A stretch of 44,150 nucleotides of DNA from a virus (taxonomy: Duplodnaviria > Heunggongvirae > Uroviricota > Caudoviricetes). A program made the position numbers and the translations under genes. Each line of letters begins with the position of its first letter. Position 1 is the first letter of the stretch. Under the pieces are notes generated by a model. The model did no database searches. It was not told where the DNA came from and saw only the letters and a list, made by a program, of their open reading frames with translations. The stretch lies in IMG/VR virus record IMGVR_UViG_3300045988_004957; one strand, given 5' to 3'. Below are positions 11,503 through 17,191 of the stretch, one piece after another.

Positions 11503-13841
11503 TATTTAAACCCCGGCGCATTTCTTGTGGCCTTGCGGGCCTTGCTAATCTTACTGTTACTGTTCTGCAAAGAGGCAGCCACTTGCTCCTCGATGATGAT
11601 ACGCAAACGGCCTTCATCATCTTGCTCAGTGGATACGTTGCCGATTTGAGAACTCGTGTTGTTTACGATAGTAACATTAGACGGTCCGGAAGAAGACCCG
11701 TTTTGCCCCATAATTTCTTTCATCTGCTGTGCGGTGCGTACACGTGACGCACCAGCGGGCATGATAACTTCTGGTTTACCGCGTTCGGCGATGGTTGAAG
11801 CCTGCCCCGCGGATAACTGTCCGCCCTGTTCACGTGCGGACCTGATAGCGGAAATCTGCGCCATACCCGCCCCAACGGCAGCAGCGGCAGCTACAGGAGC
11901 CAGGAACGGGCCAACTACAGGGATAGCCGCTGTTGACTTATACGCCTCAATAGCCGCGGTGTACGTGGCTATAGTGGCCTGCACGATAGCGAATGCCTTG
12001 TACGCGCCAGAAGCCTCGCCCAAAGCCGAACCGATGTTTGAGGCCATGTTACCGAAGGCCGTTGCCGTTGCGTCGGCACGCTTCGTGGCGTACTGCTCGT
12101 TGATGGCATTAAGCGCAGCCTGATACTGCTTCTCACTAATCAAACCCTGCTCGCGGTACTTATCTGCTACCGACAGTTTCTGCTGTTCCTGAATGTTGAG
12201 AAGCTCAAGCTCAGCGGCGTTCTGACCCATAATCTGAGCCATGAAGTCTTCACCTTTCTGGTTCTTTTCCTGCCGTTCTTTCTCTCGTTTAGCGAGTTCC
12301 TCCTGGCGAGCAGTGTCCGCTTCCAGCATAATCTGCGTCTTGGCGTTTTCGTACTGCTGGTCGCTAAGAAGCTGATTGCCGTAAAACTCCTGTAGCTTGG
12401 TTAACTGCTGTTCCTGGTTGGCTTCTATTTTCTGGAATACGTCATCATTGAGATGAATTGACTGATAGTAGAAATCCTCCGCGGCTTTCTTCTGGCGCTC
12501 GAACGCATCCGCTGCTTTCTTAGCGGCTTTTGCACCCGCGCTATCATCTTCAGATCCGCCGCCGGTACCAGTTACCTTAAATTTACTAAGCCCTTCTTCC
12601 TTAGCGGCTTCTTTGTCGATGTCATACGCTGCGCGTTTAAGCGCGACGATATTTTGCTGAGCCTCCACCTGTTCGCGGAAACTTTTACGTGTCAGGTCCG
12701 CAACGTCGCGCTGAGTATCCAGTGCCATCCCCAGCTGGAAGTTAATATTTTTTGCTACGTCTACGGATTCCCCTGGTGTGAAGGCGGCCTTAACCAGCCG
12801 ACCGGCATCCTGCGCCCCTTTAACCATATCCTCAAAGAAGCGCTCCATCGCGGTAAATTCTTCCGCGATGAAATCGAGCGCATCGGCGGCTGATTCCGCT
12901 ATGGTTGTCGCCGTTTGTTCGCCGCTATCCGTGATACTTTTGCTACTAAAATCCCAAAGCTCATTTAGCCCGTTTATCGCATCACCCACGAAACCAAATG
13001 CCGCGTCGAATGACATCTCTATTGCGCTTCCTACTTCCGACGCGATGTCACCCCACATACGCATCTCTGCGGCAAGTTCACCGGATGCAACCTGTGCGTT
13101 AAGTTCCTGGATTAAATCATCGATGTATCGGATAGGTTCGGCGAGCGCACCAACATCAAGACTGGTAGCCAGTGTCATTTTTAACTGCGACCATGAGTCG
13201 CTGGCACTGGCGATGGCCCCGTTAAGTGTGTTGGCCTGGTCCGCCATAGCCCCCGCGAAGTTTACGTTACCGATGTTGAGCAGGTATTGCTCGATGTCGG
13301 CAGCGCTCTTCTTAACTACCGTAGTAGTACCCTGGAATGTAAATTCAACATCGTTTTTGTTCTGTTTGGCCTTGATACCAAATTCTTTAAGGCGCTCAAA
13401 TTCAAAAGTACTAGCGTCTGCAACCGCCTCAATCATCTGATTCAGGTCTTTACCCATAGCAGCGGCGGTGTTTCCGTAGGAACGCAACGCTTCTTCTGAC
13501 GGTGTAAGACCAAGCGCCACAAGTTTACGGAATCCCTCTACCGCCTGTTCAAGGCCATACGGAGTGTCGCGCGCGAAGTCTTGCAGGATGCTTAACGCCT
13601 GTCTTGCACCCTGCGTGCTTCCGGTTAGTGTTTTCAGGCTGGCGGACATCTTGTCCAGTTGCCGTTGGGATTCTACCAGTTCCTGTGCGGCCTTGTAAGC
13701 GGTAGCGGCGACGATGGAAGCGAGGCCCGCTACCGCAGCTCCGGCTACCTTTGCAGACTTGGAAAGGTTATCAAGACGGTCTGATGTAGCTTTCGCGCCT
13801 TGCTCTGATACTTTTACAACTAAACTAGCTACATCAGCCAT
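11502..13841 (-). CDS. tail tape measure protein
   Basis: 779 aa, Ala/Gln/Glu-rich helical protein downstream of chaperone pair. Confidence 0.8.
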   Translation of the reverse strand: MADVASLVVKVSEQGAKATSDRLDNLSKSAKVAGAAVAGLASIVAATAYKAAQELVESQRQLDKMSASLKTLTGSTQGARQALSILQDFARDTPYGLEQAVEGFRKLVALGLTPSEEALRSYGNTAAAMGKDLNQMIEAVADASTFEFERLKEFGIKAKQNKNDVEFTFQGTTTVVKKSAADIEQYLLNIGNVNFAGAMADQANTLNGAIASASDSWSQLKMTLATSLDVGALAEPIRYIDDLIQELNAQVASGELAAEMRMWGDIASEVGSAIEMSFDAAFGFVGDAINGLNELWDFSSKSITDSGEQTATTIAESAADALDFIAEEFTAMERFFEDMVKGAQDAGRLVKAAFTPGESVDVAKNINFQLGMALDTQRDVADLTRKSFREQVEAQQNIVALKRAAYDIDKEAAKEEGLSKFKVTGTGGGSEDDSAGAKAAKKAADAFERQKKAAEDFYYQSIHLNDDVFQKIEANQEQQLTKLQEFYGNQLLSDQQYENAKTQIMLEADTARQEELAKREKERQEKNQKGEDFMAQIMGQNAAELELLNIQEQQKLSVADKYREQGLISEKQYQAALNAINEQYATKRADATATAFGNMASNIGSALGEASGAYKAFAIVQATIATYTAAIEAYKSTAAIPVVGPFLAPVAAAAAVGAGMAQISAIRSAREQGGQLSAGQASTIAERGKPEVIMPAGASRVRTAQQMKEIMGQNGSSSGPSNVTIVNNTSSQIGNVSTEQDDEGRLRIIIEEQVAASLQNSNSKISKARKATRNAPGFK

Positions 13842-14193
13842 CGTTTCTACCCTCGAAAATAGCGTCTAAGCTCATGATGATGTCAGATTCAAACATGCCT
13901 ATATTCTGGCCTGAAACGGTGCTGTATGCCACTAAATCCGACCATCTTAACTGTTCGCGCGGGTACATCTTGATGCCATCGTCATCCACTCGGCGGGTAA
14001 ATTTGATTTCCCGGTACTTCTCGAAGGTGGTTAATAGTTCAGGGGGGCATTCCGGCCCGGTGTCCTGCGTTGCTTCCGGCGCATCTTGCATAACCCCCAT
14101 AGCAATTAGCGCGGCTTTATGCCCGTCGGCAATACTGTCAAACTCCCGCCGTTTGTGGCGGGCTATGAAGTTCCAACGGGCAAACTGGAGCAA
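13834..14193 (-). CDS. tail assembly chaperone, T-like frame
   Basis: ORF in the -1 frame relative to the upstream chaperone, beginning before its stop; annotated start is TTG. Confidence 0.5.
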   Translation of the reverse strand: MLQFARWNFIARHKRREFDSIADGHKAALIAMGVMQDAPEATQDTGPECPPELLTTFEKYREIKFTRRVDDDGIKMYPREQLRWSDLVAYSTVSGQNIGMFESDIIMSLDAIFEGRNDG

Positions 14194-14198
14194 CGCGT

Positions 14199-14615
14199 CT
14201 ACTTTTCCTGCAATTGGTGAAGCTGTTCGTTGTGGAAAACAACAACGTGTTCAGCGAGGCGTTTATATTGTGAAAAAAGAGTATTCAGGTTCTCTTTATT
14301 AAATTCATCGTCGAGACTCCAACCGTTAACCAGTTCAAGTGCTAACTGGCGGTTAAGGTCCGTCGCGGCGTCTTCCATCTTAATGTTATATTCCGAGAAA
14401 TCTTTCAGTTCCTCGCATTTATCACGAAGCGGCTTCAGTTTACCTAACGACGCGCGGTACGCCAGGGTAAATGCACGCATGGCTTTAACCGCAACGTCTG
14501 CCTCCGGTGAAACAACGTTCAGCCACTCCCCTGAATCGGTGCCGTCTTTCAGTGGGATCGGCATACGGGCGCCTTTTTCTGCCTCAGCTTCGTAATAAAA
14601 ATCAGAAAGTTTCAT
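14199..14615 (-). CDS. tail assembly chaperone (G-like)
   Basis: 138 aa acidic ORF immediately upstream of the overlapping T-like frame and tape measure. Confidence 0.55.
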   Translation of the reverse strand: MKLSDFYYEAEAEKGARMPIPLKDGTDSGEWLNVVSPEADVAVKAMRAFTLAYRASLGKLKPLRDKCEELKDFSEYNIKMEDAATDLNRQLALELVNGWSLDDEFNKENLNTLFSQYKRLAEHVVVFHNEQLHQLQEK

Positions 14616-14722
14616 TCTTTAATCCTTTGGTTAAGAGGTTACGGGTTAAGGTTAATGCGCCAGACGGGAACCACCCGCTTTTCGTGTGCGACACTAGGCG
14701 CAAAATTATTCTATCACATTAC

Positions 14723-14751
14723 TTGCACACCCCAATATAATAGTGTACTAT
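14723..14751 (+). promoter_or_regulatory. sigma70-like promoter with embedded dyad (site 1)
   Basis: TTGCAC-17 bp-TACTAT; dyad AATAGT-GT-ACTATT at 14739..14752; 40 bp upstream of ATG 14793. Confidence 0.55.
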
Positions 14752-14792
14752 TCACTTACACCAACGATGTTATCCCAAACAGGAGCTACACC

Positions 14793-14984
14793 ATGACGGG
14801 TATTACTATGTTCTTCTTAATCATTATCGTTTTAGTTTATTTTATTCCATTTCTCGTGGCGCATATGCGCGACCATAAAGCGAAATTAGCGATATTCATG
14901 GCTAATCTGTTTCTTGGATGGGTTCTGCTGCCGTGGGTATTTATTTTAATCTGGGCTTGCAACTCGAATGTCAAAGAGAAGTGA
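14793..14984 (+). CDS. superinfection-immunity-like small membrane protein
   Basis: 63 aa, two TM helices, FIPFLVAHMRDH ... NLFLGWVLLPW pattern recalls Imm-type proteins; SD AGGAG 7 nt upstream. Confidence 0.5.
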   Translation: MTGITMFFLIIIVLVYFIPFLVAHMRDHKAKLAIFMANLFLGWVLLPWVFILIWACNSNVKEK

Positions 14985-15021
14985 GCTAGTATAGGACAAA
15001 TCCTAAGCACTAGGAATAAAC

Positions 15022-16152
15022 ATGGCCCGGAAGAAAATAACCGACGAACAGTTGCAGGAAGAATTGAACGCCGGTATGAAGAATGTAGATATCGCCCGTA
15101 AATACGGCATCTCAGACCGCGTAATTCGTATCCGTAAAGCGAAGCTGGCTAAGAAAGGCGTGGGCCACGGGCGCGACGTTAGCCACCTTGTGCCAGACGG
15201 CTACAAGATTAAAGGAACGTCGTCACTTGTGGACGAGTTCGGCAACACTAAGTTGCAATGGGTTAAGACTGATACCGACGCCGAACGTCAGGTTGAATTG
15301 ATGAAAGCCGTAATAGAGGGCATGAAGTCAGAGATTACGCCCGTTGCGCCTGTTAAAGCGGCGCGCGCCAAACGTGACGACAAGCTACTCAATCTTTACA
15401 CTGTATCTGATTTCCATCTCGGTATGCTGGCATGGGCCGATGAGAGCGGCGACGACTGGGACATGAAGATTGCAGAAGACCTGTTCTCTCGGTGGTTCGA
15501 CGCGGCGTTTCAGAAAGCACCGGATGCAGGAACAGGAGTTATTAACCTGCTTGGGGACTTCGCACACTTCGATAGTCTTGATGCCGTTACCCCGGAGTCG
15601 CGCCATGTATTAGATGCGGATACTCGCTATCAGAAACTGGTACGTTACATGATTCGTATGGTCCGCCGTGTTGTTGATATGGCGCTGGTTAAGCATCACA
15701 CAGTAAAACTTTTAATCGTTCAAGGTAACCACGACCCTGTTGGCTCCGTATGGCTTGCCGAAATGTTCACGGTTTTATACTCAAACGACAGCCGAGTGAT
15801 TGTTGATACGTCGCCGGATGTTTACAAGATGGTGCAACACGGCAAAACGACGCTGTTCTTCCATCACGGGCATAAAGCACGATTCGACGCTATCGAACCG
15901 GTTATGATTGCCAAGTTCCGTAAAGCGTTCGGCGAGAGTGTTTACAGCTACGCCCACGTAGGCCATCTGCACCACCAGAAGATTGTAGAAAGCCGTAACA
16001 TGATTATTGAGCAACACCGCACCTTAGCGGCTAAAGACGCCTACGCCTCTCGCGGCGGATGGATGTCGGGCCGCAGTGCAAATGTAATTACTTATAGCGC
16101 CGAATATGGCGAGGTCGCACGTTTAACTATTTCACCGGAGATGCTGGGATGA
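15022..16152 (+). CDS. metallophosphoesterase with N-terminal HTH-like region
   Basis: Calcineurin-like motifs DxH (SDFHLG), GDxxD (GDFAHFD), GNHD (QGNHDP), HHGH, GHLHH; basic HTH-like N-terminus. Confidence 0.7.
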   Translation: MARKKITDEQLQEELNAGMKNVDIARKYGISDRVIRIRKAKLAKKGVGHGRDVSHLVPDGYKIKGTSSLVDEFGNTKLQWVKTDTDAERQVELMKAVIEGMKSEITPVAPVKAARAKRDDKLLNLYTVSDFHLGMLAWADESGDDWDMKIAEDLFSRWFDAAFQKAPDAGTGVINLLGDFAHFDSLDAVTPESRHVLDADTRYQKLVRYMIRMVRRVVDMALVKHHTVKLLIVQGNHDPVGSVWLAEMFTVLYSNDSRVIVDTSPDVYKMVQHGKTTLFFHHGHKARFDAIEPVMIAKFRKAFGESVYSYAHVGHLHHQKIVESRNMIIEQHRTLAAKDAYASRGGWMSGRSANVITYSAEYGEVARLTISPEMLG

Positions 16153-16637
16153 AAGATATTGTAATTTTCGATTTAGACGGGACATTGGCCGACGGTACCC
16201 ATCGCTTACACCTGTTACCAAAAGATAACTACGGAGAAACGTGGGCGTGGAAGCCATTTAACATGGCCTGCAAAGATGACGCTCCGATATACGACAATAT
16301 CCATTTGTGTAGCGTACTGTGGCATTCCGGACTTACTATAATTATCCTTACCGGGCGAAGTGATGACGCTGAGGAGGAGACTCGCGAATGGTTACGAGAG
16401 AATAACGTTAGGTTTGACACGCTAATCATGCGCAGCAAACACGACAACAGAAAAGACATCGTAATTAAAGAAGAGGTGTTGCGTGCTTTCGGACTGGAAA
16501 GAATCTTGTGTGCGTTCGACGACTCTCCAGCGGTAATAAAGCATTTCCGTGACCTCGGCATAACCGCACACGCAGTTACCGAATACGACTGTAACGGGAA
16601 CTCTACACACTTAAAACCACACGGGAGCGATAAATAA
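16149..16637 (+). CDS. HAD-superfamily phosphatase
   Basis: N-terminal DxDGT motif (FDLDGTLADGT) and downstream Asp-rich motif; ATGA overlap with upstream gene. Confidence 0.65.
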   Translation: MKDIVIFDLDGTLADGTHRLHLLPKDNYGETWAWKPFNMACKDDAPIYDNIHLCSVLWHSGLTIIILTGRSDDAEEETREWLRENNVRFDTLIMRSKHDNRKDIVIKEEVLRAFGLERILCAFDDSPAVIKHFRDLGITAHAVTEYDCNGNSTHLKPHGSDK

Positions 16638-17191
16638 TGGCTAAGGTAATTATTCTTAATGGCCCCGCGGGTTGCGGGAAAGACACGCTTGCTATGGCGC
16701 TGGTAGAAATGGGCTTTGCGAAAGGAACTACCAGTTTCAAGAATCCAATGTTCAATATTGCTTTGGCAGCGTTAGGCCAGGATGCTTACCACGAATTTCT
16801 CGACGGCTACGACGACCGGGCGCGGAAAGAAAAACCCGAGGGTTTTCTTAATGGGTTGTCCCGCCGCCAGTTAATGATTGCCATTTCTGAGCAATTCATT
16901 AAACCGGTATTCGGCGATGATTATTTCGGTAAGTATCTTGCTGAAAACTTGCCTGACGGCGACGAAGTTTTTGTAGTGTCCGACGGTGGATTCGCCAGTG
17001 AAGTTGCCCCTATCGTCGCCGCGGGGCATGACGTGCGAATCGTCCGCCTCCATCGTGACGGCTATACGTTCATCGGCGATAGCCGTGGCTATCTGTACGA
17101 TGTTAGTGGTGTAAAAGATTACGACACCTACATCATACCGGGTGACGTTAAATCGAACGTTATAGACATTGCTTTAAAATTAGGTTTGTAA
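16637..17191 (+). CDS. P-loop kinase (dNMP-kinase-like)
   Basis: Walker A with GKDT variant (NGPAGCGKDTLA); 184 aa; last gene before terminator. Confidence 0.6.
   Translation: MAKVIILNGPAGCGKDTLAMALVEMGFAKGTTSFKNPMFNIALAALGQDAYHEFLDGYDDRARKEKPEGFLNGLSRRQLMIAISEQFIKPVFGDDYFGKYLAENLPDGDEVFVVSDGGFASEVAPIVAAGHDVRIVRLHRDGYTFIGDSRGYLYDVSGVKDYDTYIIPGDVKSNVIDIALKLGL

Follow-up and report, generated by a model that had tools for sequence, protein, structure and literature searches.

The stretch analyzed here, the 44,150-nucleotide (nt) tailed-phage record IMGVR_UViG_3300045988_004957 from IMG/VR (hereafter the window), contains a tail assembly chaperone region in which all genes are encoded on the minus strand. 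The central feature of this region is a pair of overlapping open reading frames (ORFs). The first, a G-like ORF of 138 amino acids (aa; 14615-14199, ATG 14615-14613, stop TAG 14201-14199), gives the 0-frame product and matches Pfam Phage_TAC_4 (3.3e-8, above the curated cut-off) as well as phrog_15027 and phrog_313, both annotated "tail assembly chaperone". The second, a T-like ORF, lies in the -1 frame relative to G and is listed with 119 aa, from a TTG at 14193 to a TGA ending at 13834. The corresponding T-domain coding region extends over 122 codons of the -1 frame (14202-13834, VDALLQFARW...GRNDG, stop TGA 13836-13834), and the -1 ORF matches Phage_TAC_18 (1.6e-18, above the curated cut-off), so that both parts match tail assembly chaperone families. 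The PHROG profile phrog_15027 comprises 259 positions and represents a fused G+T protein, in which G covers positions 1-138, the -1 ORF covers positions 135-259, and the two meet at Lys138/Val139. A single profile spanning both G and T implies that fused G-T proteins have already been deposited; the exact 260-aa G-T fusion of the window is absent from the protein collection searched. We consider it highly probable that this locus uses a -1 frameshift of the G/GT type, occurring on the tetramer A_AAG and promoted by a long-range RNA helix, which would yield a 260-aa G-T fusion.

The surrounding gene order is that of a G/GT locus, with two consecutive ORFs lying after the tail tube gene and directly before the tape measure gene. 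Along the minus strand, the tube protein (18392-17220, Pfam Phage_tube_2) is followed by G (14615-14199), the T frame (14202-13834), and the 779-aa tape measure protein (13841-11502; phrog_1538, 5e-204, and Pfam TMP_3). The ATG of the tape measure gene (13841-13839) has a GAGGG upstream and lies inside the 3' end of the T frame (TGA 13836-13834). Ribosomes reading the T frame should amount to just a few percent, which means that translation of the tape measure gene has to begin on its own. The window belongs to Kagunavirus (Guernseyvirinae), and its chaperone region is 99.7% identical to that of Escherichia phage vB_EcoS_HSE2; the hosts of the relatives are E. coli, Salmonella, and Serratia.

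The 3' end of the G-like ORF reads ...CAC CAA TTG CAG GAA AAG TAG. The putative shift site, G_GAA_AAG, occupies 14208-14202, with the conserved tetramer A_AAG in the 0 frame at 14205-14202, and the TAG directly 3' of it overlaps GTA (Val), the first codon of the T frame. A 5-nt spacer, UAGAC (14201-14197), separates the site from the downstream helix. Upstream, the -1 frame is bounded by a TGA at 14253-14251 and is open from 14250 onward, which gives an overlap of 52 nt with G. The original prediction, made from this one sequence, had correctly placed the T-like frame in the -1 register over the last codons of G and had pointed to GGAAAAG as not a strict X_XXY_YYZ heptamer, and both statements agree with our reading of the locus; its estimate that the frame is open for about 17 codons upstream of the TTG falls slightly short, the actual number being 19. 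Re-pairing of the P-site tRNA from GAA to GGA would leave a G-U pair at the middle position, and in relatives that carry C_GCA, G_GTA, or G_TCA, P-site re-pairing is impossible.

To place the site in an evolutionary context, we compared the window with 17 GenBank and 76 IMG/VR loci, whose G-T fusion proteins are 43-99% identical to that of the window. The sample covers Kagunavirus, Jerseyvirus, Cornellvirus, and Serratia phages, and was reduced to 84 unique nucleotide sequences and to 30 representatives at <90% nt identity. The IMG/VR members were gathered with an alignment as query, the T protein alone having returned only near-identical contigs.

The G ORF closes with NNA AAG in all 84 unique sequences. 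In 83 of these, TAG or TAA is the very next codon, whereas L072 terminates one codon further on. The codon preceding AAG is mostly GAA, with GCA, GTA, and TCA in several lineages, GGA in one, and AAA in two. Since this codon varies while A_AAG is invariant, the conserved site is the A_AAG tetramer and not a heptamer. The alignment with relatives that the original prediction had proposed as a check therefore supports its G/GT-type -1 frameshift at GGAAAAG and removes most of the uncertainty, with the amendment that the site is this tetramer rather than a degenerate version of the lambda heptamer. Single-base variants do create canonical heptamers at this position in a few IMG/VR loci, G_GGA_AAG in L055 and A_AAA_AAG in L075 and L077, and these speak in favor of a G-T fusion; in the latter two, the first base pair of the downstream helix is mispaired.

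Synonymous positions around the junction are under unusual constraint. Among the 30 representatives, third-position entropy is 0 at codons 137 (xxA), 138 (AAG), 139 (GTA), and 141 (GCG), and 0.21 at codon 142 (CTG/TTG), against a gene-wide mean of 1.53 bits; other columns of equally low entropy, besides the four junction codons, are mostly Met or Trp codons. Val139 is GTA in 29/30 representatives. Elsewhere in these genes, AAG accounts for 46% of Lys codons, GTA for 24% of Val, GCG for 31% of Ala, and CTG for 28% of Leu. Taken with the other comparative results, this pattern shows that selection acts on the RNA sequence A AAG TAR NN GCG YUG itself, and that the T domain depends on translation arriving from G.

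The invariant tetramer lies within an overlap that is reduced to as little as 10 nt in some relatives, where stops in the -1 frame cut it to 25, 19, or even 10 nt. In these phages a shift is possible only on the last two sense codons of G. The same comparison bears on whether the change of frame could take place elsewhere, through ribosomal slippage at the T-rich GTT GTT TTC (14243-14235) or through RNA polymerase slippage on the A run. The T-rich run does lie inside the overlap of the window, where the -1 frame is open from 14250, but it is not conserved, in the close relatives Shashou and fFiEco03 a TGA closes the -1 frame after the run and before G ends, and the overlaps of other relatives are too short, at only 10-25 nt. 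As for the polymerase, GGAAAAG offers four A's, far fewer than the roughly seven to nine that transcriptional slippage usually needs, and the run is interrupted in the GCA, GTA, and TCA variants. We regard a change of frame at any other place or by this other means as scarcely credible.

Our comparison also reveals a putative stimulatory element downstream, which the original prediction had not noticed. Exactly 5 nt separate AAG from the constrained GCG YUG, a spacer length shared by all sequences displayed, and this GCG YUG forms the start of the 5' arm of a long-range helix. In the window this arm, GCGUUGCU(CC), spans 14196-14187 and is recovered by the minimum free energy (MFE) fold, by RNAalifold, and by covariation. 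Its partner, (GG)A-AGCAACGC (14077-14067), is a perfect complement located in the variable linker of the T domain, so that the helix core pairs GCGUUGCU (14196-14189) with AGCAACGC (14074-14067). Between the arms lies a domain of ∼110 nt (14186-14078), predicted in the window to form two arms and to resemble a three-way junction. In the MFE fold of 14201-14055 (147 nt; -60 kcal/mol, z -3.35), the long-range helix closes this two-armed domain and leaves UAGAC as a 5-nt spacer.

The position of the 3' partner relative to the G stop divides the family into two clades. It lies at +129 nt (∼120 nt downstream) in clade A, which comprises the window, other Kagunavirus groups, and Jerseyvirus, and at +203 nt (∼195 nt) in clade B, which comprises Cornellvirus, Serratia phages, and others. 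Within each clade the two arms change together. The pairing is GCGUUGC/GCAACGC in the window's group, GCGUUGUUUC/GAAACAACGC in Jerseyvirus, and GCGCUGU/ACAGCGC in other clade A members; in clade B it is GCGCUGUAUGAAUU/AAUUCAUACAGCGC, with the variants GCGCUGUUG/CAACAGCGC and GCGCUGCAU/AUGCAGCG. For clade A (35 sequences, gap-free), 90.3% of cells are paired, compared with 17-47% for partners shifted by 1-3 columns; for the 15-base-pair (bp) helix of clade B (36 sequences), the corresponding values are 90.6% and 23-49%. Four pairs are changed on both sides in each clade, and the observed covariation was reached in 0/500 shuffles in clade A and likewise in 0/500 in clade B, although these controls overstate the significance of the helix because the sequences are related. 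RNAalifold recovers the clade A helix de novo. Exhaustive scans for 8-bp helices identify the proposed register as the only one with ≥85% pairing among 20,503 candidates in clade B, and as one of two among 7,875 candidates in clade A. That the clade A 3' arm falls in an otherwise variable protein linker indicates that RNA, not protein, is under selection there. A covarying helix 5 nt after AAG, present in two clades, is the kind of structure that stimulates slippage at A_AAG sites, and we propose that it probably stimulates the shift here.

Other candidate elements were less consistent. The local fold of the first 102 nt of the window (z -4.2) is not conserved and is replaced by the long-range helix in the 147-nt fold. 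A hairpin CCCGCC/GGCGGG (∼14160-14143) was dropped as a stimulator, being only partly kept in Jerseyvirus, and an upstream Shine-Dalgarno (SD)-like stimulator of the dnaX or cdd kind was rejected after the aligned upstream codons revealed no conserved element. RNAalifold found no conserved local hairpin or pseudoknot in four windows across the 30 family-wide representatives (-0.3 kcal/mol), a sliding 60-nt MFE profile has no dip after the shift site, and no Rfam family matches the region. Within the enclosed domain of clade A, a possible inner helix (∼14172-14163 with 14102-14093; A2 columns 40-49 and 110-119) has 83% of cells paired, compared with 39-52% for slid controls, but many of its pairs are G-U and its support is weak. 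It differs from the inner stems of the MFE fold of the window.

The helix also bears on how the T-like ORF is entered. Were there no frameshift, this ORF would be a separate 119-aa gene translated from its own TTG at 14193, as is assumed in the many GenBank records that annotate two genes. The TTG of the window has an AGGA 12 nt upstream, which the CPT annotators marked as a ribosome-binding site in phage Shashou; 12 nt is, however, a poor SD spacing. The TTG (14193-14191) is replaced by CTG in most relatives and is found only in the window's subgroup and in Jerseyvirus. This codon is part of the 5' arm, where the base at its first position covaries with the base that it pairs with (U-A versus C-G), such that the TTG looks like a by-product of the helix. 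Nor would a separate gene account for the constraint on synonymous positions in A AAG GTA, which lies upstream of the TTG. The second ORF thus overlaps the 3' end of G in the -1 frame and lacks a conserved start codon or ribosome-binding site, as expected for a T frame, and we find independent expression from the TTG, as a replacement for frameshifting, very improbable.

We therefore return to the frameshift and to how it would proceed. The majority of ribosomes would read ...GAA AAG and terminate at the adjacent TAG, releasing the 138-aa chaperone. For a small fraction, tRNA-Lys would leave AAG (14204-14202) and re-pair with AAA (14205-14203), a slip of -1 after which the ribosome would read GUA GAC GCG UUG... 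and continue through the T frame, giving a 260-aa G-T fusion with the junction ...LQEK-VDALLQFARW.... The required slip element would be the A_AAG tetramer, to which the preceding tRNA-Glu on GAA, with its imperfect re-pairing to GGA, would add little. The slip would be promoted by the helix 14196-14189/14074-14067 closing the folded domain of ∼110 nt, and with AAG in the A site, the constant 5-nt spacer would bring this helix to the mRNA entrance of the ribosome. By analogy with lambda gpG and gpGT, the fusion would bind the tape measure protein through its G part and recruit the tail tube protein through its T part.

Published measurements make such a mechanism plausible. In E. coli, a single tRNA-Lys serves both AAA and AAG, and IS1222 and Bacillus subtilis cdd provide examples of NNA_AAG shifts in which the P-site tRNA does not re-pair (Atkins et al., 2016). 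A_AAG is the most efficient tetramer in E. coli; alone, it is barely above background, and with the IS3 pseudoknot 5 nt downstream it gives 5.6% frameshifting. We infer that the fusion protein is made at a few percent, an efficiency that matches the lambda G:GT ratio of ∼30:1 (Atkins et al., 2016).

The stop codon adjoining the site suggests a different route to the same product. In a "shifty stop", peptidyl-tRNA-Lys in the P site would slip from AAG to AAA while TAG waits in the A site; the stop would then be the main stimulator, and the helix would serve mRNA stability or occlusion of the TTG. Stimulation by an adjacent stop is an established concept (a 1987 paper by Weiss, and a review), and this route accords with the stop adjoining AAG in 83/84 unique sequences, which forces the otherwise uncommon Val codon GTA, and with a preceding codon that is free to vary, such that only tRNA-Lys must re-pair. 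The 5-nt spacer, however, fits an AAG located in the A site and not in the P site, and equals the spacing of the IS3 A_AAG signal, while L072 keeps A_AAG, the spacer, and the helix yet has its stop one codon later. Although both routes give the same protein and are inseparable from sequence alone, spacer geometry and L072 argue against the stop as the main driver, and we judge this route to be improbable, if less so than a separate T gene. The adjacent stop could thus act as a "shifty stop", with slippage in the P site; it could instead shield the large stimulatory domain from unfolding by non-shifted ribosomes, or could simply fix the C terminus of G.

In function and gene arrangement, this is, judged from its sequence, a G/GT chaperone frameshift of the lambda type, which shares the sequence-level features of that class except the canonical heptamer. 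As in lambda (Levin, Hendrix & Casjens, 1993; Xu, Hendrix & Duda, 2004), two ORFs immediately precede the tape measure gene, the second is in the -1 frame and runs over the 3' end of the first, slippage uses an ..A_AAG Lys codon close to where G terminates, and the expected outcome is low-level fusion, with the G part directed to the tape measure and the T part to the tube protein. The two systems differ in the site itself, which is a canonical G_GGA_AAG in lambda, but G_GAA_AAG in the window and GCA, GTA, or TCA before AAG in relatives, with the tetramer alone conserved. Unlike lambda, the stop here is directly adjacent, a covarying long-range helix begins 5 nt downstream, the protein families are Phage_TAC_4 plus Phage_TAC_18, and a block of genes on the opposite strand separates the tube gene from G.

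Judged by its predicted parts, the signal of the window resembles that of the IS3 transposase more than that of lambda. Both combine A_AAG, an enterobacterial host, and a 5-nt spacer to a downstream RNA structure, and the 5.6% obtained with the IS3-type design in E. coli is within the range needed for a G:GT ratio of ∼30:1. In IS3, however, the structure is a compact pseudoknot, whereas here a helix closes a coding domain of 110-175 nt; the 0-frame stop adjoins the site; and the context is tail assembly rather than transposition. Slippage of tRNA-Lys alone by -1, beside a P-site tRNA incapable of cognate re-pairing, would be shared with IS1222 (G_CGA_AAG) and B. subtilis cdd (A_CGA_AAG) (Licznar et al., 2003; Mejlhede et al., 1999; summarized in Atkins et al., 2016), and cdd, too, shifts shortly before its ORF ends. 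In the window, GAA occupies the P site, and G_GAA permits near-cognate re-pairing with GGA. The tRNA that reads GAA has restricted wobble, while GCA, GUA, and UCA are read by broad-wobble tRNAs, a class reported to favor NNA_AAG shifts. An upstream SD-like stimulator is used by cdd; unlike cdd, the family of the window has no conserved SD-like element that we could see. A helix 5-6 nt downstream of an ..A_AAG site that closes a branched or stem-loop structure is also found in the IS911 three-way junction and the E. coli dnaX hairpin. These differ from the present case in having A_AAA_AAG heptamers plus an upstream SD-like element, whereas here the inner branches are not conserved and the 3' arm has moved between +129 and +203.

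Frameshifting at this locus is itself expected, and is already annotated in a few relatives. What appears undescribed is the combination of a tetramer, an adjacent stop, and a long-range helix with a switching 3' partner. More tentatively, and with considerable doubt, we suggest that A_AAG, an obligatory adjacent 0-frame stop, and a helix at 5 nt form a distinct three-part signal not described for phage tail chaperones. If so, the adjacent stop would be a working part of the signal: non-shifted ribosomes could terminate at the foot of the helix, and only shifted ones would unfold a slowly refolding domain of 110-175 nt. In the course of evolution, the 5' arm would have kept its place, with the 3' partner moving among several coding positions (+129, +203, perhaps +53). 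The family offers a natural set of P-site codon variants with a covarying long-range helix and a fixed adjacent stop, and could serve to test the interplay of single-tRNA slippage, helix position, and termination in bacteria.

Several points weigh against a helix-promoted shift at A_AAG, in addition to the relatedness of the sequences in the shuffle controls. The helix in the window is short, at 8 (+2) bp, and closes a large loop, with a stability that depends on an inner fold, and this inner fold is not conserved family-wide. Its conservation coincides in part with conserved residues, which are Ala-Leu for the 5' arm and, for the 3' arm of clade B, Gln-Arg. With AGGA 12 nt upstream of the TTG, some independent initiation in the window is conceivable. 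The only paper found on this subfamily, which describes a near-identical phage, reports "no canonical slippery sequence" and treats the T ORF as hypothetical, and we found no peptide, reporter, or ribosome-profiling evidence in the literature for the phage of the window or its close relatives.

These results clarify annotation for the Guernseyvirinae, with several hundred GenBank records, many of them from therapy candidates. The T frame is currently recorded mostly as a separate hypothetical gene, in truncated form, or not at all, with a spurious ORF on the opposite strand in its place. The majority of GenBank records contain two separate genes, and annotators of relatives with CTG in place of the TTG pick downstream ATGs, thereby losing conserved residues. 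A joined coding sequence labeled as a frameshift product is annotated in three GenBank relatives: fFiEco03, Shemara, and Serratia phage Smarc3. The correct annotation would be a joined -1 product at A_AAG. Searches for X_XXY_YYZ heptamers alone miss this site because only the A_AAG tetramer is conserved. In HSE2 (L003, MG252615, 1860-2288), the annotated feature is a 142-aa ORF on the opposite strand, gp052 (13874-14302 of the window, plus strand), instead of the T frame; gp052 is very likely a mis-annotation because the conserved T domain is on the other strand.

Three further loci depart from the common pattern. MirsaeidiM_Esher4 (L023, PQ579973, 1015-1230) is an outlier with G_GTA_AAG, the 5' arm GCGCUC, and a shorter T domain; its 5' arm may pair either locally, at +53, or imperfectly, with a partner near +199. 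Pseudomonas phage PMBT14 (L024, NC_048687, ∼950-1290) is a distant homolog with 27% identity, in which a canonical T_TTT_TTC occurs in the G frame ∼17 codons before the G stop and the open -1 frame then encodes the same ...LYxYAR... motif, with no T or GT annotated. Salmonella phage SS3e (L015, AY730274, ∼600-1020) was considered as a natural G-T fusion on the basis of a single tblastn piece and rejected, as G contains several frame-breaking indels, which are probably sequencing errors of an old record; its junction, ...QLQEK*/GKVDALFQFARW, is intact.

The G (138 aa) and T (119 aa) proteins fall in one 90%-identity cluster of 378 members, though unrelated in sequence; gene calls that are fused or overlap may have produced this shared cluster as an artifact. 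The tail gene cluster is interrupted, after the tail tube gene and before G, by a plus-strand block of four genes (14655-17191, ∼2.5 kb), encoding Imm_superinfect, metallophosphoesterase, HAD/PNKP-phosphatase-like, and P-loop kinase-like proteins. Serratia phage Smarc3 and Salmonella phage Shemara have a much smaller block, or none, at the same position.

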